From Deltaproteobacteria bacterium (GTDB taxonomy: Bacteria; Desulfobacterota; Desulfarculia; Adiutricales; JAFDHD01): DNA of 64,000 nucleotides. Below are positions 3,205 through 61,884 of this stretch, one piece after another (the stretch's first letter is position 1; every line of letters begins with the position of its first letter). Position numbers and translations under genes: made by a program. The stretch spans positions 64,241 through 128,240 of the forward strand of contig JAFDHD010000001.1 in assembly GCA_019308995.1 (NCBI GenBank), written 5' to 3'. The notes under the pieces were generated by a model that was not told where the DNA came from, did no database searches, and was given only the letters and a program-made list of their open reading frames with translations.

Positions 3205-5097
3205 TTACATCAACTCTTCATTGATCTTGATTATGGACCGGGCGCGTAAATCCTCAAGCCACTGACGCAGGTAATTCTGGCTCTTTATGATCTGGAGGCG
3301 CCGGGTCAGGGCTGTCTGTTCTTTTTCAAATGATTCCTCGGAAGCAGGGATGATCTTTTTAAGGCGAATGATGTAGAAGCCTTTATCATCCTCATAGGGC
3401 TCTGGTGCGGTTTGTCCGGGCTGGGTCAGGGCGAAGGCGGCCGCGGTGAGGGTTTCATTGATTCCAATCTTGGGGATGCCGCCAATACGTGTGAAAGGGC
3501 CGGTGGATTCAGGACTGAGGTTAAAATCCTGGGTCAGTTGATCCCAGCGGCCATCTTTACCAAGCGCGGCCAGAAAACGAACAGCCTCTTTCCGGGCCAG
3601 CTCACCGGCCTTTTCATCCACCAGGTTACTCCTGACCGATTCCTTGATCTTATCCAGGGCCGGGATATATGAGTCTCTTTTTTCCAGCGCCTTGATGAGG
3701 TAATGACCATCCGGGAGGTCAACCAGGGGGCCGATCTCTCCTTCTTTAAGCGAGTGGGCCAATTCTGTGAATGTCCTCTGAAGGCCCAGATCATCCACCG
3801 GCTCGTTGATGGAGAAAAAATCTGTGAAGACCGGAGTGAGCTTGTATTCCTTGATCACCGCTTTGAAATCCTGGTTCAGACTGGCTTTTTCATAAACCTC
3901 AACCGCCAGGTCCGCAGCCAGTTCCCGGGCATTGTCCGAGATGATCTTCTTCTCGATTTCAGCCTTCACTTCTTCCAGGGGGCGTATTCCAGCTTCACGG
4001 TGATCTTCGACCTTGATGATATGAAACCCGTATTGAGTCCGGACCAGGTCGCTGACCTCACCCTTTTTAAGCTTAAACGCAGCTTCAGAAAAAGGTTTGA
4101 CCAACTGGTCCCGGGCCATCCAGCCCAACTCTCCACCTTCCTTGGCGGTGGAGTCCTGGGAATGCTTTCTGGCCAGAGTGGCAAAGTCTTCTCCTGCCTT
4201 GGCCTGCTTGAGCACGAGTTCGGCCTGAGTCTTGATCCGGGCGACCTCATCAGGAGAAGCGGCCTCGTCCACCTTGAACAGGATATGCCGGGCCTTGACC
4301 TTTTCCGGCTCTCGATATTTATCTAGGTTGAACTCATAGAACTCCTCGACCTCAGACGGTTCAATCGTAATCTGGTCTTCCAGGTCTTTGGGCCGGATAG
4401 CCAGGTAGGCGACTTTGACCTTGGCCGGAACCTGGTACCTGAGCTTGTTCTTTTCAAAGTAGTCCTTCAGTTCTTCTGGAGTAGTCTTGACCTTGTTTCT
4501 GAAATCCCCGGCTTTAAAGAGAATGAACTCCACGTCAACCCTGTCCCTGGTGAAATGGTAATTTTCACGGACCTCCGCTGGAACGACCTTGACGAAACTT
4601 ATGATGAGGCGGTTCATTTGCTGGATGGTCAGATCTCTGCGCTTGAGAATTTCGTAACTCTCCGGCGTGAAACCGATCCGGGCCAGAATGCTGCGGTATT
4701 TCCCTGCATTGAAGAGGCCGTCAACCTGGAAAGCGGGTGAGTTTAAAATGCCTTCTTGGAGTTCATTCTGGGTGACTTCGAGATTCAAAGAGCGCGCCAT
4801 CTGCGAAAGCAGCCGCTGGTTGATCAGGGTTTCGAGGGCCTGGTTTTTCAGGTCCAGGGTCTTGACCAGGTCGTCACTCCAGATCTGCCGGTACTGGTTC
4901 CGGGCCTGTTCGTACAGGTTGCGGTAAGCTTCCTGATACTCGGTAAACCCAATGGCTTCGTCATTGACTATTGCGACGTACTGGGGACTGCGTTCGCGAA
5001 AGCTTCCTGCTCCCCAGAAAACGAAGACCACGACAATGGCTCCAATCATGACATTAATGATCCAACTCTTGGCATGTCTTCGCATTAAATCAAGCAT
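3205..5097 (-). CDS. ppiD: Periplasmic chaperone / PpiD-like parvulin-type peptidyl-prolyl isomerase
   Basis: 630 aa. It starts MLDLMRRHAKSWIINVMIG followed by one TM helix, and carries a parvulin domain (ARHILFKV...GGELGWM...YGFHIIKVEDH). Confidence 0.8.
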   Translation of the reverse strand: MLDLMRRHAKSWIINVMIGAIVVVFVFWGAGSFRERSPQYVAIVNDEAIGFTEYQEAYRNLYEQARNQYRQIWSDDLVKTLDLKNQALETLINQRLLSQMARSLNLEVTQNELQEGILNSPAFQVDGLFNAGKYRSILARIGFTPESYEILKRRDLTIQQMNRLIISFVKVVPAEVRENYHFTRDRVDVEFILFKAGDFRNKVKTTPEELKDYFEKNKLRYQVPAKVKVAYLAIRPKDLEDQITIEPSEVEEFYEFNLDKYREPEKVKARHILFKVDEAASPDEVARIKTQAELVLKQAKAGEDFATLARKHSQDSTAKEGGELGWMARDQLVKPFSEAAFKLKKGEVSDLVRTQYGFHIIKVEDHREAGIRPLEEVKAEIEKKIISDNARELAADLAVEVYEKASLNQDFKAVIKEYKLTPVFTDFFSINEPVDDLGLQRTFTELAHSLKEGEIGPLVDLPDGHYLIKALEKRDSYIPALDKIKESVRSNLVDEKAGELARKEAVRFLAALGKDGRWDQLTQDFNLSPESTGPFTRIGGIPKIGINETLTAAAFALTQPGQTAPEPYEDDKGFYIIRLKKIIPASEESFEKEQTALTRRLQIIKSQNYLRQWLEDLRARSIIKINEELM

Positions 5098-5573
5098 CGG
5101 TGTATTCCTCAGAATGAATTTTTATTTATATATCTTGCCAATTGACAAGCTCTTCTTAAAGTCCAGACCGGAGATGTTATTATTTCATAATATAACCGTA
5201 GCTGAAAAGCAAGCCAGGGCCGAACCCGGAAGGTTTTTTTTATATTTACTCGCTGATAAATTGGAAAAGGGGAAAAGGCGGTCAAGTAAACCAGGATTAG
5301 AACTAAAGACTGAAGGAAAGGCATGAAGAGCGGGCCGTCAGTAGTCTTCATTTCCGTATTTGGTATGGATTGAAGGGATTTTTTGACCGAAAGAGGGAGG
5401 CTAGCCTTCCTATTGCGGCGGAGTGAAGACCGGCGATTTTGATAAGTATTTGATATTACAGCGTGAATTGTTTCACTAAAGAAACAAGTTGACAAATCCC
5501 TGTCATCTTGGATATACATCACCACGACCTTTGTAATCAACGCGCATCGGGATGCAAAGTGGATAAGGGGACC

Positions 5574-15451: not shown

Positions 15452-16225
15452 ATGCTCACTTTGATGAAACGACAAGATCCTTTTACTATTAAACGCACCT
15501 GGCGTGATGATGAAATGAGAGACGCCAGGGCGCGGGGCGAGAAGTTGAATAACTCTCCAGTAACGGCCTTGACCTTCTGTCATCACCCTGAATGTGCGCG
15601 GGATATTGCAGAGCTCAAGACGACCTTCAAGAGGGAGATCGCCAGGGTCGGTTATGAGGATGTGTCGCTTTTGGACACCAAGACTATCTGTTCTGGCAGC
15701 TGCAGTCGCGGCCCATACATTGGAATGATGGGCCTGGGTCTTTTTTACCGGGGTATCAGGAAAATAGAGGTCTCGGAACTGCTTTACGAGACCTTGTTCA
15801 AGAACAAGTTTTTATTTCACCGCATTGCCCTCGATCCCTTGAAGTGCACCGATCCGCGAGTAATCTTCCATTACAAGGAAGGGGTATTGGTCACTCTGGA
15901 CCCGAAAACCTGCATGGTTGGCCTGGCTAAGTATTTATATGAGTTTAACGCCCTCGAATCATGCGGTAAGTGCACCCCTTGCCGTGCCGGATGCTTTCAT
16001 GTGACTGAAATTATGAAGGCCCTAGTGGAAGGCAGTGCCACGGCCGGCGACCTGACGCAGCTTGAGGCTTTGATCTGGTTAATGGATCAAGGGGCTTACT
16101 GCGAATTTGCTCCCAAGGTGGCTTCCTCCATTACCCTGACTCTTAAAGAGTTTCGGGAGGAATACGAGGCTCATCTTAATGGCGGCACCTGTGCCATCGC
16201 AGGATGCGGCGATTGGGGTCTGTAA
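15452..16225 (+). CDS. Fe-S protein with a NuoE-like [2Fe-2S] motif and a NuoF C-terminal-like [4Fe-4S] motif, lacking an FMN/NADH domain
   Basis: 257 aa. The N-terminal half has CHHPEC-X31-CSGSC, matching the CX4C...CX3C pattern of thioredoxin-like 2Fe-2S ferredoxins. The C-terminal half has ESCGKCTPCR-X36-C, matching the NuoF N3-cluster region. No glycine-rich flavin or NAD motif is visible. The gene sits 11 nt after nuoN and is followed by a terminator. Confidence 0.65.
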   Translation: MLTLMKRQDPFTIKRTWRDDEMRDARARGEKLNNSPVTALTFCHHPECARDIAELKTTFKREIARVGYEDVSLLDTKTICSGSCSRGPYIGMMGLGLFYRGIRKIEVSELLYETLFKNKFLFHRIALDPLKCTDPRVIFHYKEGVLVTLDPKTCMVGLAKYLYEFNALESCGKCTPCRAGCFHVTEIMKALVEGSATAGDLTQLEALIWLMDQGAYCEFAPKVASSITLTLKEFREEYEAHLNGGTCAIAGCGDWGL

Positions 16226-35043: not shown

Positions 35044-35847
35044 TTACGCCTTCTTGTCAGGACGAAGCAATTGAAACAAGACCACCACAAGACCCAGGGC
35101 CAATCCGAAGATAATCAGGGCCACGGAGTGCTTTTTAAAAAAATTTTGATCCTGAGCCACCCGGACCTTGCTTTCGGCCACATTGCTGTAATGCCGTCCG
35201 TCGGCCTCGTATTCAAGGAAGGATATGACAGGGTATACTGAGCCTTCAAGGGCTGAGAAGTTTTTCAGTTTAAAGCTCACCTTCCCCTTCCCCTGGGCTT
35301 TGATGCGCAGACCTTGCTCCGCCGGGTTCACCTTTAACTCTTGCGGTACGATCAAGCGGATTCGTACTTCCCGCTCGACCCGGTCCATATTGAGCACCTC
35401 GAGGCGCAGCCTGGTCTTGCCAGTCATAACGACTTCAGTCGGCCGCACAAAGACCTGCATATTGACGCCTTCTTGATAAACAAAGGACGCATGAGACAAA
35501 CTGGAGAAAAGATAGCCGTTGAGGTCGTGAAAATCCACCCGAACCTCAACCGGATAGGAGCCAGGTAGGGACAGCTGCGGATGCAGGGTCAAAAAAGCGG
35601 TAAAAGACTCGCCCGGCTTGAGCGCGGGTTTTATCCCGGATGAACGGACCGTATTCTGAAAAATGGCATGGATCTGGACGTTCGCCGCGGCTTCATCTCC
35701 CATATTGGTCGTGGTGACATTTATTCTGACTCCGTCCTGCATTACCGTACAGGTAGCGTAAGTCTGTATGGAAATGAAACCGGCTTCAGCGGAGAAGGCC
35801 CATGAAATAACAGCGAGATAAAGAATGGAAAATAGTAATCTTTTCAT
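35044..35847 (-). CDS. Exported beta-rich protein with a C-terminal membrane anchor
   Basis: 267 aa with a signal peptide (MKRLLFSILYLAVISWAFSAEA) and a C-terminal TM followed by a basic tail (ALIIFGLALGLVVVLFQLLRPDKKA). The middle looks like two Ig/CARDB-like beta domains, which is inference. It is the first gene of the operon. Confidence 0.55.
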   Translation of the reverse strand: MKRLLFSILYLAVISWAFSAEAGFISIQTYATCTVMQDGVRINVTTTNMGDEAAANVQIHAIFQNTVRSSGIKPALKPGESFTAFLTLHPQLSLPGSYPVEVRVDFHDLNGYLFSSLSHASFVYQEGVNMQVFVRPTEVVMTGKTRLRLEVLNMDRVEREVRIRLIVPQELKVNPAEQGLRIKAQGKGKVSFKLKNFSALEGSVYPVISFLEYEADGRHYSNVAESKVRVAQDQNFFKKHSVALIIFGLALGLVVVLFQLLRPDKKA

Positions 35848-46303: not shown

Positions 46304-47569
46304 ATGGCTGACAGTTTTGGCATTATGTCTCTTACTTCTTCCCCGGAGGAACGCTTTAAGTTCATCAATGAAGTGGACATCCAGGGTAAAATAATTCTGG
46401 TTCGCGTTGACCTGAACGTTCCTCTGGACGAAAACCTGAACATCACCGACGACATGCGGATTCGCACCATCCTGCCCACGGTTAATTATGCCTTGGACGA
46501 GGGTGCGCGGGTCATTCTGTGTTCGCATATGGGCCGACCGAAAGGCAAGGTGGTGCCAGAACTCAGCTTGAGCCCGGTGGCTCGGCGTTTGAGGCGGCTC
46601 CTGAAGAAGGAGATCCTCCTCGCTCCCGACTGTGTCGGAGAAGAGATTCAAAAGTTGATTTCAGAAATGAAATCCGGGGATATTCTGCTCTTGGAAAACC
46701 TGCGTTTTCATATTGGAGAAGAGAAAAATGACGATGAATTCGCCCGGCAGCTGGCAAATCTCAGCGATGTTTATATAAACGACGCCTTTGCGGTCGCCCA
46801 TCGGCCTCACGCCAGCATGGTCGGCATCACCAAACATGCTTCCGTGTGCGGGGCAGGCTTTCTGATGAAAAATGAGTTGACCTACTTTTACCGCGCCATG
46901 GAAGATCCGGCTCGACCTTTCGTGGCCGTCATCGGCGGCGCCAAGGTATCCTCCAAGCTCTCGGCCATTGAAAACCTGGTGGATAGAGTTGATAAACTCA
47001 TTATTGGCGGCGCCATGGCCAACACGTTTCTCAAGGCGATTTATCCTGCCATTGGTCATAAATCTCTGGTCGAGGAAGACCTTGTTGAAACGGCGCGGGA
47101 GATAATGCGTAAAGCCCGCCGTCAAGGCATCAAGTTCTATATTCCGGTGGATTGTGTCGTGGCTGACCGTTTTGATTCCAAGGCTGAAACCAAGATGACC
47201 ACGGTCCAGGAAGTACCGGAAAACTGGATGATCGTTGATATTGGTCCGGCGACCTCCTCTCTATTTGCAGAGGCCCTGCAGGATGCCAAGACCATTATCT
47301 GGAACGGCCCCATGGGCGCCTTTGAGATAGACGCCTTTTCTCGCGGGACATACCAGATGGTTCATACCATAGCCAACTCGTATTCCCTGACCATCGTCGG
47401 CGGCGGGGACACCGATGTGGCGGTGAATAGACTAGGGGAGTCTTCCCGCATGACCTACATCTCCACTGGCGGCGGTGCTTTCCTGAAATTACTGGAAGGA
47501 GATCAGCTCCCTGGGATTACGGCCCTTGAGGAGCATGCCCGCCGCACAAATCAAAGGGAGGGATCTTGA
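46304..47569 (+). CDS. pgk: Phosphoglycerate kinase
   Basis: The motifs [14 protein letters not shown] and GGGDT are present. The start could be the internal ATG at 46325. Confidence 0.95.
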
Positions 47570-48346
47570 ATGAGCGAGGTGTTTTCAAATCGCCGGCCCC
47601 TGATTGCAGGCAATTGGAAGATGTATAAGACCGGAGCCGAGGCAGCGGCTTTCATCGAGCATCTCAAGACCCTGCTGCCTTCTGATCTCGAAGTGGACGT
47701 GGCGGTGGCCCCTTCATTTGCGGCCCTGGAATCCGCGCTTCGGGCCGCGGCTGGTTCATCCATCATGATTGCGGCCCAGAACGTTTTCTGGGAAGAGGAA
47801 GGCGCTTACACCGGTGAGGTCTCAGTCCCGATGCTTAAGGGCCTTGGGATCAAATTGGTCATCATTGGCCACTCGGAACGACGGCAGTACTTCGGCGAGA
47901 CCGATGAAACCGTGAACCAACGGGTAAGGACCGCCATGACCCACGGACTGACGCCAATCGTTTGCATCGGTGAAACCTTGGAGCAAAGGGAAGCCAACCA
48001 GACCCGCGAGATCCTCAAGAATCAGGTAAATAAAGGGTTAGCCGGGCTGGATATCGAGGCAGCCCAGAGACTGATCATCGCTTATGAGCCGGTCTGGGCC
48101 ATTGGCAGCGGGCGAACCGCCACACCGGAAATAGCTCAAGAAGCTCACACAGTTATCCGTGGTATGCTTGAGAAAGTCTTTGATAAAGACCTTGCAAATT
48201 CCATTCGGATTCTGTATGGTGGTTCTGTCAAACCGGAAAATGCAACGGAGCTCTTAATCCAGCCGGACATTGACGGGGCTTTAGTTGGAGGCGCCAGCTT
48301 AAAGCCGGATATTTTCTTTGAGATCATCAATTTCAAGGGAGCGTGA
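47570..48346 (+). CDS. tpiA: Triosephosphate isomerase
   Basis: The motifs AGNWKM, IGHSERR and [11 protein letters not shown] are present. Confidence 0.95.
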
Positions 48347-51863: not shown

Positions 51864-51892
51864 TTGACAAGGCTGGGACTAGCCTGTATATT
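51864..51892 (+). promoter_or_regulatory. Near-consensus sigma70 promoter for the selenoprotein gene
   Basis: TTGACA-N17-TATATT. The spacer contains the inverted repeat aggct-N7-agcct. Confidence 0.5.
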
Positions 51893-52033
51893 CACTCGCT
51901 ACAGGCTTTCTTGAGAAGGTGGTCAGATTTTTACGGCTTGATCAAGGTGTCCTGCTGGTATAAAATTAGATAGAAATGGCTGAATCAAGGTAAAAACGGC
52001 CTGCCAAAATATGCTCCAAGGAGGGTTTCTTAC

Positions 52034-53335
52034 ATGGCAGAACCCATTGTTTTATCTGAACAGAAAGGGGAGTTTAAGCAGAGAATCCAGCCTCTTCTGC
52101 CAGAGGGAGGGAACCTGGACCTCTGTTTTACATGCGGCACGTGCGCCAGCGGCTGCCCGGCTTCGGGTCTGGCCGACATGGATCCCAGAAAATTCTTGAG
52201 AATGGTCCTGCTGGGCATGGACGAGGAGGTTCTCACCACCCCCTGGGTCTGGATGTGCACCGGGTGTCAGAGATGTATTGCGGCCTGCCCCATGAAGATA
52301 GACATTCCCCAGCTAGTTTATCAAGCGCGAGCGAGCTGGCCGCGCGATAAGCGCCCCACAGGCATTCTCAAGTCATGCGATCTATCCGCTACCAGAGATA
52401 CTTGCAGTGCTATGGGGGCGTCCGAAGAAGACTGGAGATTTGTGGTCGAGGACGTGGCGGAAGAGGTGAGAGAAGAACAACCAGGATTCGAGCATCTTCA
52501 GGCGCCTATGGATAAGAAAGGGGCCTACTTCTTCCTTAACCAGAATTCCCGCGAACCGGTGACCGAGCCGGACGAGATGGTCCCGCTCTGGAAAATAATG
52601 GATGCTGTTGGGGCAGATTGGACTTATGGTTCGAAAGGCTGGGCCGCGGAAAATTACTGTATGTTTCTCGCGGACGACGAGGCCTGGGAACACATTTTAC
52701 GGGTCAAAGTCAAAGCGATGGAGGATTTGGGCTGTAAGGTCTGGCTCAACACTGAGTGAGGCCACGAATTCTTCGCAGTCCGGTCCGGACTGAAAAAATT
52801 CAACATCCCTTACAATTTCGAAATCAGAAGCATCATCGAATTTTACGCGCAATGGATCAGGGAGGGTAAGCTCAAGGTCAACTCCGACTGGAACAAGGAC
52901 CTGAAGATCAAGTTTACGGTTCAAGACCCCTGCCAGCTCGTCAGGAAGTCGCTGGGCGATCCGGTGGCTGATGACCTGCGGTTTGTAATTAAGACAGTGG
53001 TTGGTGAAGAGAACTTCATTGATATGACCCCGAATAAATCGAACAACTACTGCTGCGGCGGCGGCGGCGGCACGCTGCAAAGTATTTATCCTGAGGAGCG
53101 TCGGGCCTATGGCAGGGTAAAGCTGGATCAAATTTTAGCTACGGGCGCAGATTACTGCATTGCCCCTTGCCATAACTGCCATTCTCAAATCCACGATCTG
53201 CAAGAATACTATGAAGACGCTAAACACCATACGGTTCATTTGTGGACAATCATCTGCCTGGCCATGGGCATACTTGGTGAAAACGAACGAACATACCTTG
53301 CTCCCGATCTGGCAGAGTTTGGATTAGAGTCATGA
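52034..53335 (+). CDS. HdrD/GlpC/DsrK-like Fe-S oxidoreductase with a predicted selenocysteine (UGA at 52757-52759)
   Basis: One frame is open across 434 codons except for a single TGA. It contains two ferredoxin motifs (CFTCGTCASGCP and CTGCQRCIAACP) and a CCG-type cysteine-rich domain (DPC-X39-CCGGGGG...CIAPCHNC). A strong RBS, AAGGAGGG, lies upstream. Confidence 0.75.
52766..52801 (+). promoter_or_regulatory. SECIS-like hairpin
   Basis: The lower stem is GAAUU/AAUUC and the upper stem is CAGUCC/GGACUG. The apical loop is GGUCC, starting 23 nt past the UGA. Confidence 0.6.
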
Positions 53336-53376: not shown

Positions 53377-53413
53377 AAATGGACTCGTGGACTTCCCCGG
53401 GTCCATTTTTTTT
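53377..53413 (+). terminator. Rho-independent terminator after the selenoprotein gene
   Basis: AAATGGAC (53377-53384) pairs with GTCCATTT (53401-53408), which runs straight into a T8 tract. Confidence 0.55.
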
Positions 53414-53520
53414 GTTAACCTGACCCGATAGAGGCGGGGACCAAAGAGGCTAAAGGGCTTGCCCATACAAAATTTTAGCCAGACTGAGCCTTGCACTCCT
53501 TGCCCAAGGACTGATCCTTG

Positions 53521-58603: not shown

Positions 58604-60274
58604 ATGAAATCTGATTGTCCTGTTATAAAAGCGGAGGTATTAATCATTGGCGGCGGTAGTGCTGGGGCCATGGCGGCTATCCGGGCTAAGGAGGTTAAAC
58701 CGGCGCAAAAAGTGGTCGTATTCGAAAAAGGGGACATTAAGTATTCAGGCTGTATTGCCCGGGGTATGGACGCCCTCAATATAGTGGCCGTTCCAGAGAT
58801 AAGCACGCCAGAGCTATACGTTGAATCCAACGGCATAGCCTGCGAAGGAATCATGGACGAACCGGTAAACTATCGTATGGCCGAAAGAAGCTGGTCAATG
58901 ATGAAAAAGCTGGAATCCTGGGGCGTCTATTTTCCAAAAAACGATAATGGACAGTACGATGTCCTCCAGGTGCATCCCAAAGGGCGCTTTTGTGTGACCA
59001 TGAAAGAACCTGAATTGAAAACAATTCTAGCCAAAAAACTGATGGATCTGGGCGCTCAGGTTGTTAACCGAACCATGGCCGTGCGCTTGATTAAAGATGA
59101 AGGACGTATTGCCGGCGCGATCGGAATGAATGTTCGGACCGGGGAAGTAATCGTCTGTCTGGCCAAGACCGTCATATTGACCTCCGGTGGAACGGCGCGC
59201 TTCGGCCTGCCCGATAACGGCCATCTTTACGGGGTATATGACTTCCCTGGAAATACCGGAGACGGTTATTGCCTGGCTTATCGGGCGGGCGCTGAGTTGA
59301 GCGGTTTCGAATACACGCTGGTTTATTACATTGTAAAGGATATTAACGCGCCCCTGCTTTACATCACTCTGACGCGTGGAGCCCAACTTTTCAACGCTTT
59401 TGACGAGCGCCGCGACCAAGACCACCCTTCCATCAGATCAATGTATCAGGAGCATCTGGAGCTTAAAGGGCCGATGAGAATCAAGATGAATCATCTGCCA
59501 GAAGAACGCATCAAAGAAATCGAGGAGCTTCTTTTTACTACTGAACGGCCAGCTTGTGAGAGATTTTACAAAGGGCGCGACATAGATTTCCGAGACGATG
59601 AAATTGAACTCTGGCCCACAGAATGCTTTTTATGCGGCGGTCACGGTTTGACCGGGGTCAGGGTCAACGAAAACGCTGAAACTTCGGTTCCCGGTCTTTA
59701 CGCTGCTGGAGACACGTCGCTCGTAGCTCGCGGGCATCTTTCCGGTGCATTTGTATTTGGAGAGATTGCCGCTGAAAACGCGTCTGAGTACGCGGCGTCA
59801 AATGTGGACATCTCTTTGGACGATGGCCGGGTAAACGCCTTTTTGAACGAAATAGAAAATAGAATGACCCAAGACACGAATCCGGTGGCCATCGAAGAGT
59901 TCGAGTACAAGGTCAGACGGATGATAACTGATTATATTGCCCCGCCGAAAAACGAATATAAGCTTAACCGGGCATTATGGTGGATGAATCGGTTTACAGA
60001 GGAATTGACAGATATAGTTCGTATTGATGATGTTCATGACCTTTTCAAATTCTTTGAGGTGGAAAACATTATTCAATGCGCCAGACTGAGCGCAACTGCC
60101 TCCAAAGAGCGCAAAGAAAGCCGATGGATTCCCTGGCATTATCGAAGTGATTACCCTGAAAAAAATGATCAGGACTATTTGAAACACATTGTTTTAACCA
60201 TGGGAGACGAGCCCGGAGATATCAAGGTGTCGTATGCGCCTATCATTCGACTTGAAAAGGACGGCAAGCATTGA
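58604..60274 (+). CDS. FAD-dependent oxidoreductase of the fumarate reductase / APS reductase alpha (AprA)-like superfamily
   Basis: Dinucleotide fold VLIIGGGSAGAMAA, the motif GLYAAGD, and a C-terminal KESRWIPWHYRSDYPEKND motif resembling the FrdA/AprA capping region. Confidence 0.7.
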   Translation: MKSDCPVIKAEVLIIGGGSAGAMAAIRAKEVKPAQKVVVFEKGDIKYSGCIARGMDALNIVAVPEISTPELYVESNGIACEGIMDEPVNYRMAERSWSMMKKLESWGVYFPKNDNGQYDVLQVHPKGRFCVTMKEPELKTILAKKLMDLGAQVVNRTMAVRLIKDEGRIAGAIGMNVRTGEVIVCLAKTVILTSGGTARFGLPDNGHLYGVYDFPGNTGDGYCLAYRAGAELSGFEYTLVYYIVKDINAPLLYITLTRGAQLFNAFDERRDQDHPSIRSMYQEHLELKGPMRIKMNHLPEERIKEIEELLFTTERPACERFYKGRDIDFRDDEIELWPTECFLCGGHGLTGVRVNENAETSVPGLYAAGDTSLVARGHLSGAFVFGEIAAENASEYAASNVDISLDDGRVNAFLNEIENRMTQDTNPVAIEEFEYKVRRMITDYIAPPKNEYKLNRALWWMNRFTEELTDIVRIDDVHDLFKFFEVENIIQCARLSATASKERKESRWIPWHYRSDYPEKNDQDYLKHIVLTMGDEPGDIKVSYAPIIRLEKDGKH

Positions 60275-61884
60275 GAGTGAATCCCTTAGAAGCTCTGTCC
60301 GACAACATTGCCATTGACAAGGATAAATGCACCTTCTGCGGGATATGCATCGAAACGTGCATACTAGATAATTTAAGGATGAAACTGGCGCCCTGCCGTC
60401 AGGCTTGTCCTCTTGGCGTCAATTGCCAGGGATACGTTCAACTTATCGCTCGAGGCGAGGAGGCCAGGGCTCTGGAATTGCTCAGGGAGACCCTGCCTTT
60501 TCCGGGTATTGTCGGGCGTATTTGTTCCCAGCCTTGTGAAAGGAGATGCTATCGCCGTGAGGTTGAAGGGGAAGCGGTGGCTATTCGCGCGCTCAAGCGT
60601 TATCTGGCCGATCAATTCGAGAAAGAAGAGCTGCAACTGCCGCAGATTGAACAGGATACGCGCAAACACGTGGCTGTTATCGGGTCCGGTCCGGCCGGCT
60701 TGATCGCAGCCTATGATCTAAGAATCCAAGGTCATGCTCTAACCGTTTTTGAAGCCGAGAGCGCACCGGGCGGGATGCTTCGATGGGCCATGCCCGAGTT
60801 TAGACTGCCTGGGCGAATCCTGGAAAAAGAACTTCATTTACTGGAAAGCATGGGTATTGATTTTCACTGCCAATGTAAAATCGGAAGAGACAAAGGCTTT
60901 GAAGATTTGAAAAATGAATTCGATGCTGTGATCATAGCCATCGGCTGCCAGGAACATGACAGGCTGAATATCGAAGATGAAGATAAGCACAGTGTATATC
61001 ACGCCCTGCCTTTTCTTAAAGAGGTGCGTGACGGAACCGCGCCTGAGATCGGAAAAAAAATCCTGGTAATTGGCGGTGGAAATGTGGCCATTGACTCCGC
61101 CCAAACCGCGCTCAGGCTGGGCGCGGTGAACGTAACTCTGGTCACTCTCGAATCCGAAAATGAACTGCCAGCCTTTCCCTGGGCTATTGAAAGTGCGTTA
61201 AGTGAAGGAGTCAAGCTCAAATGTTCACTGGGTAACCCCAGATTTATTTTTCAGGAGGGACAGCTGAAAGGAGCCGAGTTTAAGCGCTGTCTCGCGGTAT
61301 TCGATGAAAGCGGCTGTTTCAAACCAAATTTTGATAACAGCCAGTTGAAATTCCTGGAGGCAGACTCTGTCATTATCGCCATAGGCCAACACTCTGATAA
61401 AGCGATTTTTCAATCGGCCGGATTGCTGGAGGATGATTCTTTTACGGTGGATCCGCTTACACTTCAAACACCTATGGAGAACACTTTTATTGCCGGAGAC
61501 GCCTTCAGCAGCCCTTCATCCGTTATAGAGGCCATGGCCAGCGGGCGACGGGCTGCAGAGTCTGTAAACCGTTTCTTGAATGGCGATGACATCCGTTATG
61601 GCCGTCAGTATGAAGGCCCAATAGAGACCGAATTTGAGATTGATACCAGCCGGGCCTCACCTGAAGAAAGGGCGGACATCCCCCTTTACCGTTTGAAAGG
61701 CAGGGGCGATTTTAAAGAAATTGAACAAGGTTTTGATACGGCCACAGCTCGCCGTGAGGCGACGCGCTGTTATTCATGCGGGCAGCCCTTTGGTAAATAC
61801 CGAACCTGCTGGTTTTGCTTGCCCTGCGAAGTGGAATGTCCCCATGATGCGCTTCGGGTTGAGATTCCGTACTTGATCAGATGA
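60271..61884 (+). CDS. GltD/NfnB-like NAD(P)H-dependent Fe-S flavoprotein with an extra C-terminal ferredoxin-type motif
   Basis: N-terminal Cys clusters (CTFCGICIETC, CRQACPLGVNC), two Rossmann motifs (VAVIGSGPAGLIAAYDL, ILVIGGGNVAIDSA) and a C-terminal CYSCG...CWFCLPCEVECP. It overlaps the upstream gene by 4 nt. Confidence 0.75.
   Translation: MRVNPLEALSDNIAIDKDKCTFCGICIETCILDNLRMKLAPCRQACPLGVNCQGYVQLIARGEEARALELLRETLPFPGIVGRICSQPCERRCYRREVEGEAVAIRALKRYLADQFEKEELQLPQIEQDTRKHVAVIGSGPAGLIAAYDLRIQGHALTVFEAESAPGGMLRWAMPEFRLPGRILEKELHLLESMGIDFHCQCKIGRDKGFEDLKNEFDAVIIAIGCQEHDRLNIEDEDKHSVYHALPFLKEVRDGTAPEIGKKILVIGGGNVAIDSAQTALRLGAVNVTLVTLESENELPAFPWAIESALSEGVKLKCSLGNPRFIFQEGQLKGAEFKRCLAVFDESGCFKPNFDNSQLKFLEADSVIIAIGQHSDKAIFQSAGLLEDDSFTVDPLTLQTPMENTFIAGDAFSSPSSVIEAMASGRRAAESVNRFLNGDDIRYGRQYEGPIETEFEIDTSRASPEERADIPLYRLKGRGDFKEIEQGFDTATARREATRCYSCGQPFGKYRTCWFCLPCEVECPHDALRVEIPYLIR

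Follow-up and report, generated by a model that had tools for sequence, protein, structure and literature searches.

Comparative evidence for a selenocysteine codon and SECIS-type hairpin in a solitary GlpC-like iron-sulfur oxidoreductase gene of Desulfobacterota

A selenoprotein family resembling the 'Fe-S oxidoreductase (GlpC)' was described in deltaproteobacteria in 2006 from five selenocysteine (Sec)-containing sequences (Zhang, Romero, Salinas & Gladyshev, PMC1794560), together with an operon type, glpC-hdrA-frhD-frhG-frhA, in which GlpC was presented as 'an additional selenoprotein family' (PMC1794560). A Sec-containing hdrD4 was reported in 2009 from Desulfobacterium autotrophicum HRM2, which has the full Sec machinery (PMC2702500), and a 2026 review of the prokaryotic selenoproteome lists an 'Fe-S oxidoreductase-like protein, PTHR43551, motif UGH' (PMC13188914). 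In DsrK, HmcF and TmcB, a cysteine in the motif T/GECGH has been explained as the remnant of a lost first CCG site and proposed to be catalytic (PMC10861901). Here we describe a gene from a 64,000-nucleotide stretch of a Deltaproteobacteria bacterium genome (assembly GCA_019308995.1, contig JAFDHD010000001.1, positions 64,241 to 128,240 of the forward strand; the whole stretch is called the window below). The gene consists of two open reading frames (ORFs) joined through a single in-frame TGA, belongs to the GlpC-like selenoprotein family known since 2006 and, we are highly confident, is a real Sec-encoding gene whose UGA at 52757-52759 is decoded as selenocysteine.

Translation of positions 52034-53335 on the forward strand gives one frame of 433 codons. 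Its sole internal stop is the TGA at 52757-52759, preceded by V-W-L-N-T-E and followed by G-H-E-F-F, and the true stop of the coding sequence is a second TGA at 53333-53335. The two ORFs listed for this region, 52034-52759 and 52964-53335, lie in the same frame with an offset of 930 nt. By our own estimate, 191 open codons would follow a stop by chance with a probability of (61/64)^191, or about 1e-4, and the comparative evidence takes the open downstream frame far beyond chance. The principal features of the gene are the following.

52034..53335, + strand: full coding sequence of what is very probably a 433-residue selenoprotein, with an HdrC-like ferredoxin domain, a degenerate CCG-like domain and one complete CCG domain (from the frame, the homologues and substitution rates)
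52115..52300, + strand: HdrC-like ferredoxin domain for two [4Fe-4S] clusters, residues 28-89, with Cys 31/34/37/41 and 75/78/81/85 (Pfam Fer4_8, Fer4_9 and Fer4_17; HdrC in the PDB)
52757..52759, + strand: UGA, very probably read as selenocysteine, residue 242, in the motif N-T-E-U-G-H (from Cys in homologues and TGA in orthologous loci)
52766..52801, + strand: bacterial selenocysteine insertion sequence (SECIS) hairpin with the apical loop G-[GUC]-C at 52782-86 (from fold, conservation, codon entropy and loss in Cys forms)
52916..53191, + strand: complete CCG domain, residues 295-386, with a predicted noncubane [4Fe-4S] site (PF02754, E = 2e-11)

We obtained 2,831 relatives from a search of 5.8 billion proteins; the 120 best are full-length, about 430 residues long and 62-69 % identical to the window protein. 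All of these close homologues (120/120) have a cysteine aligned with residue 242, as do 33/33 distant full-length relatives from a 50 %-cluster library (27-39 % identity), in which the motif is mostly (T/G/S/P)-E-C-G-H and the histidine is present in 30/34 aligned sequences, counting the query and its closest Cys form, P0003. Since split gene calls hide Sec forms in protein databases, we compared the orthologous loci as DNA, using a collection with one genome per species. Among at least 590 confirmed matches, the best 80 (71-86 % identity by best tblastn segment, all from Desulfobacterota) carry TGA at exactly the residue-242 codon in 80/80 cases, each in the genome of a different species; these best 80 matches being all Sec, the Sec form is widespread, in at least 80 species-level Desulfobacterota genomes. 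Isolates among the carriers include Desulfonema magnum 4be13 (L019), Desulfopila aestuarii DSM 18488 (L028), Desulfoprunum benzoelyticum DSM 28570 (L026) and Desulfosediminicola flagellatus, and Desulfosudis oleivorans is a carrier too.

In Desulfonema magnum, a Sec form (L019) shares the genome with a Cys paralogue (P0046/L083; CP061800.1, 2209972-2223279). The Sec form is located downstream of hdrA-like and metF genes, and the Cys paralogue downstream of etfBA and a 162-residue protein with no Pfam match. This pairing suggests functional specialisation, or a back-up under selenium limitation.

The part of the gene beyond the TGA is under purifying selection. The ratio of non-synonymous to synonymous substitution rates (dN/dS) past the TGA is 0.21 against L003, the nearest related locus, and 0.11 against L004, with values of 0.06-0.08 upstream of the TGA; the two downstream figures are probably overestimates, because the comparison is ungapped. 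Residues G243 and H244, directly past the UGA, are invariant in the family. The identical window sequence occurs on two independent Joint Genome Institute (JGI) metagenome contigs (metagenomes 3300033141 and 3300033148), where it is called as proteins of 241 and 103 residues. For practical purposes, the conserved TGA, the two independent contigs and the purifying selection together exclude an error of sequencing, a pseudogene and a protein that naturally ends early.

Directly 3' of the UGA, the RNA at 52766-52801 folds into a bipartite hairpin. Its lower stem, GAAUU/AAUUC, pairs 52766-70 with 52797-801, followed by TT/AA at 52772-73 with 52795-96, and its upper stem of 7 bp, CAGUCCG/CGGACUG, pairs 52776-82 with 52786-92 around the loop GUC at 52783-85. 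A 66-nt segment folds to -19.8 kcal/mol (z = -2.94; 2/200 shuffles fold as well), and the hairpin alone, from nt +9 to +44 past the UGA, to -12.1 kcal/mol. The published model of bacterial SECIS elements (bSECIS) has an apical loop of 3-9 nt, an upper stem of 4-16 bp, 16-37 nt between UGA and loop, and a minimum free energy of at most -7.5 kcal/mol, with a G at position one or two of the loop, usually as N1-G-[G/U]-N-N2 with N1 and N2 paired (PMC13188914). Applying this model by hand, we find all four of its properties in the window hairpin: the loop G-G-U-C-C, a 7-bp stem, a spacing of 22-23 nt and the energy of -12.1 kcal/mol. Like the SECIS of E. coli fdhF, the hairpin sits inside the ORF directly 3' of the UGA, at a similar distance, and starts its loop with G-[G/U]; unlike in fdhF, no bulged U was identified in the window hairpin, and sequence similarity between the two is limited to the loop motif.

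Conservation of the hairpin is apparent at the RNA level. The loop G is invariant in 78/78 distinct orthologue sequences and the next base is G or U in 76/78, the upper-stem pairs are present in 97-100 % of 66 distinct orthologue sequences, and the closing pair varies among orthologues as G-C (57), U-A (5) and A-U (1). In covariation score as in percentage of paired cells, the hairpin surpasses 499-500 of 500 shuffles and every slid control. Codon entropy, calculated in 7-codon windows, reaches its minimum for the whole gene at codons +5 to +15 (0.27, with a mean of 1.32), and this constraint on synonymous sites is the strongest argument for a SECIS. Between the window and L003, the hairpin shows 0/36 differences, in genes that are 76 % identical at the nucleotide level. 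Cys-form homologues have no hairpin at the same place: L085 and L086 encode nearly the same peptide there (A-F-R-V-G-L-K-K-F), and the L085 sequence folds only to -0.2 kcal/mol. The constraint and the loss in Cys forms together indicate that selection acts on the RNA structure itself, and does so only in genes that have UGA as the codon. An Rfam scan of the whole window returned two tRNAs only and no SECIS or other family, a result without weight here because the diversity of bacterial SECIS elements exceeds what a curated model can cover.

At the protein level, the N-terminal 100 residues match HdrC (PDB 8RVV_C, E = 2e-15) and residues 287-416 match the C-terminal CCG domain of HdrB; the alignments of this single-sequence PDB search were confined to the HdrC part and the second CCG domain and left the Sec region unaligned. 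The complete CCG motif is C300-X39-C340C341-X37-C379-X2-C382, and its five cysteines are invariant in the family. An AlphaFold2 model of P0003, which is 67 % identical to the window protein (pLDDT, the predicted local distance difference test, 85; pTM, the predicted template modelling score, 0.86), matches EtfD (E = 1e-9) and HdrB (TM-score 0.65, normalised to HdrB, about 310 columns) by Foldseek. In this model the Cys/Sec position lies at the end of a beta-strand and the start of a helix with a pLDDT around 97, and the degenerate CCG-like domain is modelled at pLDDT 90-97. Across the wider family, the first CCG site has no invariant residues except the Cys/Sec and the G-H that follows it. When a profile of the CCG half is aligned to EtfD (E = 3e-22), the family C-G-H falls on EtfD C581-P-H583, and the complete CCG domain also aligns to the EtfD domain that binds cluster D2. 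Cryo-electron microscopy of EtfD shows His583 filling the remaining coordination position of the noncubane cluster and C581 as one of the ligands of a linear [3Fe-4S] cluster (PMC13083937); for the three further ligands of the linear cluster, the family of the window protein has no conserved equivalent. Judged by its domains, the protein reads as a soluble HdrC+HdrB fusion of the single-CCG class, with the layout of DsrK, HmcF and TmcB, and is predicted to carry two cubane [4Fe-4S] clusters along with a single noncubane [4Fe-4S] cluster.

These results bear out a preliminary description of the locus made from the letters alone. It had joined the two ORFs through a single in-frame TGA, and translation reproduced both frame and coordinates; it had named two CX2CX2CX3CP motifs ahead of a CCG cysteine-rich domain, which motif reading and Pfam recovered, and a bipartite hairpin of SECIS geometry at 52766-52801, whose fold we reproduced and which fits the bSECIS model from the literature and shows RNA-level conservation. 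The alignment of Cys or Sec with residue 242 on which it depended is borne by all close and distant relatives compared. Of the two background points that it had put forward, the conserved E-C-G-H cysteine of DsrK/HdrD-like relatives is real and described as probably catalytic (PMC10861901), and the GlpC-like Fe-S oxidoreductase selenoprotein family of deltaproteobacteria likewise exists, with the Sec motif UGH (PMC1794560, PMC13188914).

Several observations weigh against Sec insertion at residue 242, or against the role that we propose for it. In the 64-kb window, ARAGORN, Rfam and a Pfam gene survey found no selA, selB, selD or tRNA-Sec, so that Sec decoding by this genome is inferred, with indirect support from the further in-frame-TGA genes at related loci and from the complete machinery of D. 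autotrophicum; what doubt remains about the Sec gene concerns the Sec machinery of the genome and the protein product itself. In the hairpin, double changes occur at 3/14 pairs, a count not above the shuffle controls, and the lower stem is weakly conserved, with pair 13-42 unpaired in 38/66 sequences; the covariation is modest because the sequence is so conserved. An hhalign comparison of residues 150-262 with residues 280-405 gave a probability of 0.25 %, and the equivalence of Sec242 with a cysteine of the CCG motif was not obtained; since this internal-repeat alignment is not significant, Sec242 was placed by the profile alignment to EtfD instead. Finally, a catalytic role of the Sec would rest on homology and on the proposal made for DsrK.

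Other explanations of the interrupted frame fit these data far less well. The TGA could be a real stop. The locus would then be a pseudogene or the result of a mistake in sequencing or assembly, or would encode a truncated ferredoxin-like protein of 241 residues with dead sequence behind it. The JGI gene calls, with one ORF of 241 residues and another of 103, agree with this, as do the many database fragments that end in LNTE and the fact that TGA terminates 25/57 window ORFs kept by a greedy ORF filter. Yet all 80 orthologues, each of a different species, share this TGA, as do two independently assembled metagenomes, the 191 open codons past it evolve at a dN/dS of 0.11-0.21 and contain the invariant G-H and the complete CCG motif, and all Cys-form relatives are single polypeptides of about 430 residues; a real stop is therefore extremely improbable and has essentially been refuted already. 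We give just as little credence to a pair of genes, HdrC-like at 52034-52759 and HdrB-like from a GTG at 52964, with the hairpin as an inter-cistronic regulatory or stabilising element. HdrC and HdrB are indeed separate subunits in methanogens, as the PDB matches show, and an ORF with a GTG start does exist at 52964. However, the 68 codons from TGA to GTG are open and conserved and include the invariant residues G243, H244 and W274, the second ORF would start inside the fold and lack the degenerate CCG-like domain modelled at high confidence, the break falls exactly on an invariant Cys codon, and the hairpin matches a SECIS in geometry and loop motif.

Recoding of the UGA without selenium is also very unlikely, whether as Cys inserted by SelB and a mis-acylated tRNA(Sec) under selenium scarcity or as near-cognate read-through with Trp or Cys. 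Cysteine is functional at the residue-242 position in hundreds of homologues, and no Sec machinery was observed in the window, both as this explanation would have it; but the SECIS-type hairpin, with its invariant loop G, is the kind of structure recognised by SelB, the mvhD and hdrA-like neighbours in orthologous operons (see below) also carry in-frame TGAs, and a one-base change to TGT or TGC, which would be strongly favoured if Cys were intended, is found in 0/80 loci. An alternative genetic code in which TGA is a sense codon was rejected on the 25/57 filtered ORFs that end in TGA. We likewise rejected the other apparent TGA read-through genes of the window, nuoH to nuoI, rpmE to DUF1385 to prfA, and pgk to tpi, which are adjacent in-frame genes with their own starts. 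At the last of these junctions (window 47567-47572), the pgk stop abuts the tpi start in frame (TGAATG), and read-through would give a PGK-TPI fusion; there is no hairpin and no sign of read-through, and we treat the two as ordinary adjacent genes.

Selenocysteine insertion at residue 242 would proceed as follows. As in the established bacterial mechanism, SelB carrying Sec-tRNA(Sec) would bind the mRNA hairpin at 52766-52801 and bring Sec to the ribosome as it reaches the UGA at 52757-52759, which would then be read as selenocysteine during translation and yield a single 433-residue selenoprotein. In the protein, Sec242 would replace the T/GECGH cysteine, the sole conserved thiol remaining from the lost first CCG cluster site, and would stand two residues before His244, the likely counterpart of the EtfD histidine that ligates the noncubane cluster. 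From these sequence alignments we infer contact between His244 and the noncubane cluster, with Sec242 as a free selenol next to the cluster. The positions at which Sec is selected are usually catalytic ones, redox-active or metal-binding, and the presence of Sec at the T/GECGH position supports the proposal of a catalytic thiol there. Sec242 is most likely the nucleophile or the resolving residue in the reduction of a disulfide, persulfide or trisulfide: the selenol would attack or resolve the substrate disulfide, giving a selenenyl-sulfide intermediate, and the cluster would supply electrons singly. The Sec form would offer a natural high-activity variant for the biochemical study of enzymes with one noncubane cluster. 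The DsrK paper makes no mention of Sec and does not draw the link between Sec and T/GECGH (PMC10861901), and a search of the available literature for papers combining selenocysteine with DsrK, HdrD and CCG found none that does.

Orthologous loci give some indication of the partners of such an enzyme. In 48/80 loci the gene is preceded by a gene for a large HdrA-like flavoprotein of about 1,100 residues with an N-terminal HTH_17 domain, and this hdrA-like ORF is often itself split by a TGA. Translation of the gaps between the hdrA-like gene and the Sec gene in four loci revealed an MvhD with its own in-frame TGA, in a context reading FCCDY before and GYSAADLAG after the codon and, in L072, VIMMG before and HLGECHY after it.

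L026:3450-3900, L028:3470-3900, L012:3350-3800 and L072:3500-3950: MvhD/FlpD-type gene with an in-frame TGA (gap translation)

The TGAs in the mvhD and hdrA-like genes point to operons with up to three selenoprotein genes in a row. A methylenetetrahydrofolate reductase (MTHFR, MetF) gene is present in the fetched flank of 32 loci, sometimes with MetV, and L072 has [NiFe]-hydrogenase subunits downstream. Cys-form homologues are found in similar hdrA-mvhD-frhB-hydrogenase clusters, or beside etfBA. HdrA-like and MvhD proteins next to MetVF or a [NiFe]-hydrogenase point to a flavin-based electron-bifurcating complex, and the arrangement of Hdr, MvhD and MetVF in the methylene-tetrahydrofolate reductases of acetogens resembles these operons.

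The window gene itself is solitary, placed between a DUF2333 gene and an ABC-F ATPase gene, with promoter and terminator candidates of its own.

51864..51892, + strand: sigma-70-type promoter candidate, TTGACA-17 nt-TATATT, 11/12 matches (pattern scan, a consensus match only)
52020..52024, + strand: ribosome-binding site GGAGG, 9 nt before the ATG (direct reading)
53387..53416, + strand: intrinsic-terminator-like hairpin with an 8-bp stem at 53387-53406, then the T-run TTTTTTTGTT (pattern scan)

The preliminary description had presented the gene as monocistronic, with a near-consensus promoter at 51864-51892 and a terminator after it; pattern scanning found both elements, and together with the neighbouring genes they make the gene apparently monocistronic. 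The gene in L003 is solitary too, and L003 is the only orthologous locus to share the window neighbours (hisHF, DUF2333, ABC-F), so that synteny gives no functional clue for the solitary form. A broader reading would have the Sec reductase of this lineage (the window and L003, perhaps L004 as well) detached from the bifurcating HdrA-MvhD module and working alone, with a promoter of its own, another electron donor and another disulfide (or persulfide or trisulfide) substrate, and would take the Cys-to-Sec swap as direct evolutionary evidence for a nucleophilic catalytic chalcogen in all single-noncubane-cluster reductases, DsrK included; we regard this combined proposal as speculative and, on balance, unlikely.

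The genes around the target were surveyed by Pfam, some of them being identified by eye. Before the target lies a housekeeping region with a fusA-like gene, ppiD, nuoA-N, PPDK, rho, rpmE, prfA, prmC, a murA/aroA-type gene and CTP synthase, and with a kdsA-type gene, lptA/B, rpoN, hpf, ptsN, rapZ, pgk, tpi, secG, tRNA-Leu, hisH, hisF and DUF2333. After it come ABC-F, an SLT-LysM lytic transglycosylase, GntR, two flavoproteins and a sulfatase. Three other places in the window deserve a remark. The nuoA-N operon appears without nuoE, nuoF and nuoG, and right after nuoN (15452-16225, + strand) a 257-residue protein contains only the C-terminal [4Fe-4S] domain of NuoF (PF10589, E = 8e-22); this NuoF-C-terminal-like protein may serve the 11-subunit complex as an alternative adaptor for electron input. 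Between the GntR/UTRA regulator and the sulfatase, two overlapping genes (58604-61884, + strand) encode a fumarate-reductase/AprA-like flavoprotein (FAD_binding_2 and Succ_DH_flav_C) and a GltD-like Fer4_20/Pyr_redox_2 protein, and the pair looks like a small redox module. At 35044-35847 (- strand), a 267-residue ORF with no Pfam match at E <= 1e-5 lies upstream of, and co-oriented with, genes for a PTPS-related/TPR membrane protein, a B12-binding radical SAM protein and a family-2 glycosyltransferase.

Left unjoined, the gene is mis-annotated as a truncated ferredoxin and an orphan CCG fragment, as is already the case in the JGI records, and joining the two restores a complete redox enzyme; the preliminary description had anticipated that annotators would split it, and the JGI calls of 241 and 103 residues agree. 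Fragments of this kind recur in the databases: 13/150 of the best cluster representatives are N-terminal pieces that end in LNTE and others start 6-15 residues past the Sec, with P0123, P0145, P0176 and P0259 as examples, along with the JGI calls on L001 at 3874-4599 and 4864-5175. Both kinds of fragment come from Sec-form genes that gene callers have split, which makes them a systematic artefact of annotation in the family. Our finding is a sound annotation correction that leaves the current understanding of Sec decoding and of Hdr-type enzymes unchanged.

Among described proteins, the window protein resembles methanogen HdrB/HdrC (PDB 5ODC, 8RVU) and HdrD in that its N-terminal half corresponds to HdrC and its C-terminal half, by sequence and fold, to HdrB. 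Both CCG motifs are complete in HdrB and HdrD, where the heterodisulfide is held between two noncubane clusters, whereas the window protein keeps one; of the first CCG motif, only the Cys/Sec and the adjacent His are left in it. A strict HdrD, as in methanogen HdrDE, was rejected on these grounds: the window protein has one CCG domain only, the cysteines of the first site are unconserved, and there is no HdrE-like neighbour. Mycobacterial EtfD (PDB 9OJN) is the best match by structure and profile, with C581-P-H583 aligned to U242-G-H244. EtfD, in contrast, is membrane-anchored, contains haem b and has four Cys on a linear [3Fe-4S] cluster at the first CCG site, where it is described as non-catalytic; three of these four ligands are lacking in the window protein.

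The likeness to DsrK, HmcF and TmcB extends to two cubane clusters, a single CCG motif and a conserved T/GECGH position (PMC10861901). Unlike these proteins, the window protein has Sec for Cys and no gene for a membrane cytochrome partner next to it, and the partners at related loci are soluble HdrA-like and MvhD proteins in place of DsrM, HmcE or TmcC. HmcF, TmcB and DsrK are the best NCBIfam models, all scoring far below their equivalog cut-offs (HmcF 174/750, TmcB 163/735 and DsrK 116/400 bits, score/cut-off), and we rejected assignment to any of the three. The single CCG motif and the T/GECGH position show that the window protein works like this class, membership in it not being implied. 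GlpC proper was rejected as well, with 31 against 280 bits for TIGR03379, 38 against 278 bits for NF008369 and glpAB absent from the window; the name 'GlpC' is simply the label that COG gives to the family to which the window protein belongs.

It is with the GlpC-like selenoprotein family that the agreement is closest, comprising two ferredoxin-type clusters with a CCG domain (COG0247), the Sec in U-G-H and a range within Desulfobacterota. Most orthologues of the window gene also share with this family the setting in hdrA-like and mvhD/frhD operons with in-frame TGAs. The window gene departs from the glpC-hdrA-frhD(mvhD)-frhG-frhA operon, which is typical of the family and not strictly defining, by being solitary. 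It is a new member of a known selenoprotein family and will not surprise a specialist; to that family it adds a sub-lineage with a solitary, apparently monocistronic copy, as well as the coincidence of the Sec with the cysteine of T/GECGH, which work on DsrK has singled out as the probable catalytic thiol.

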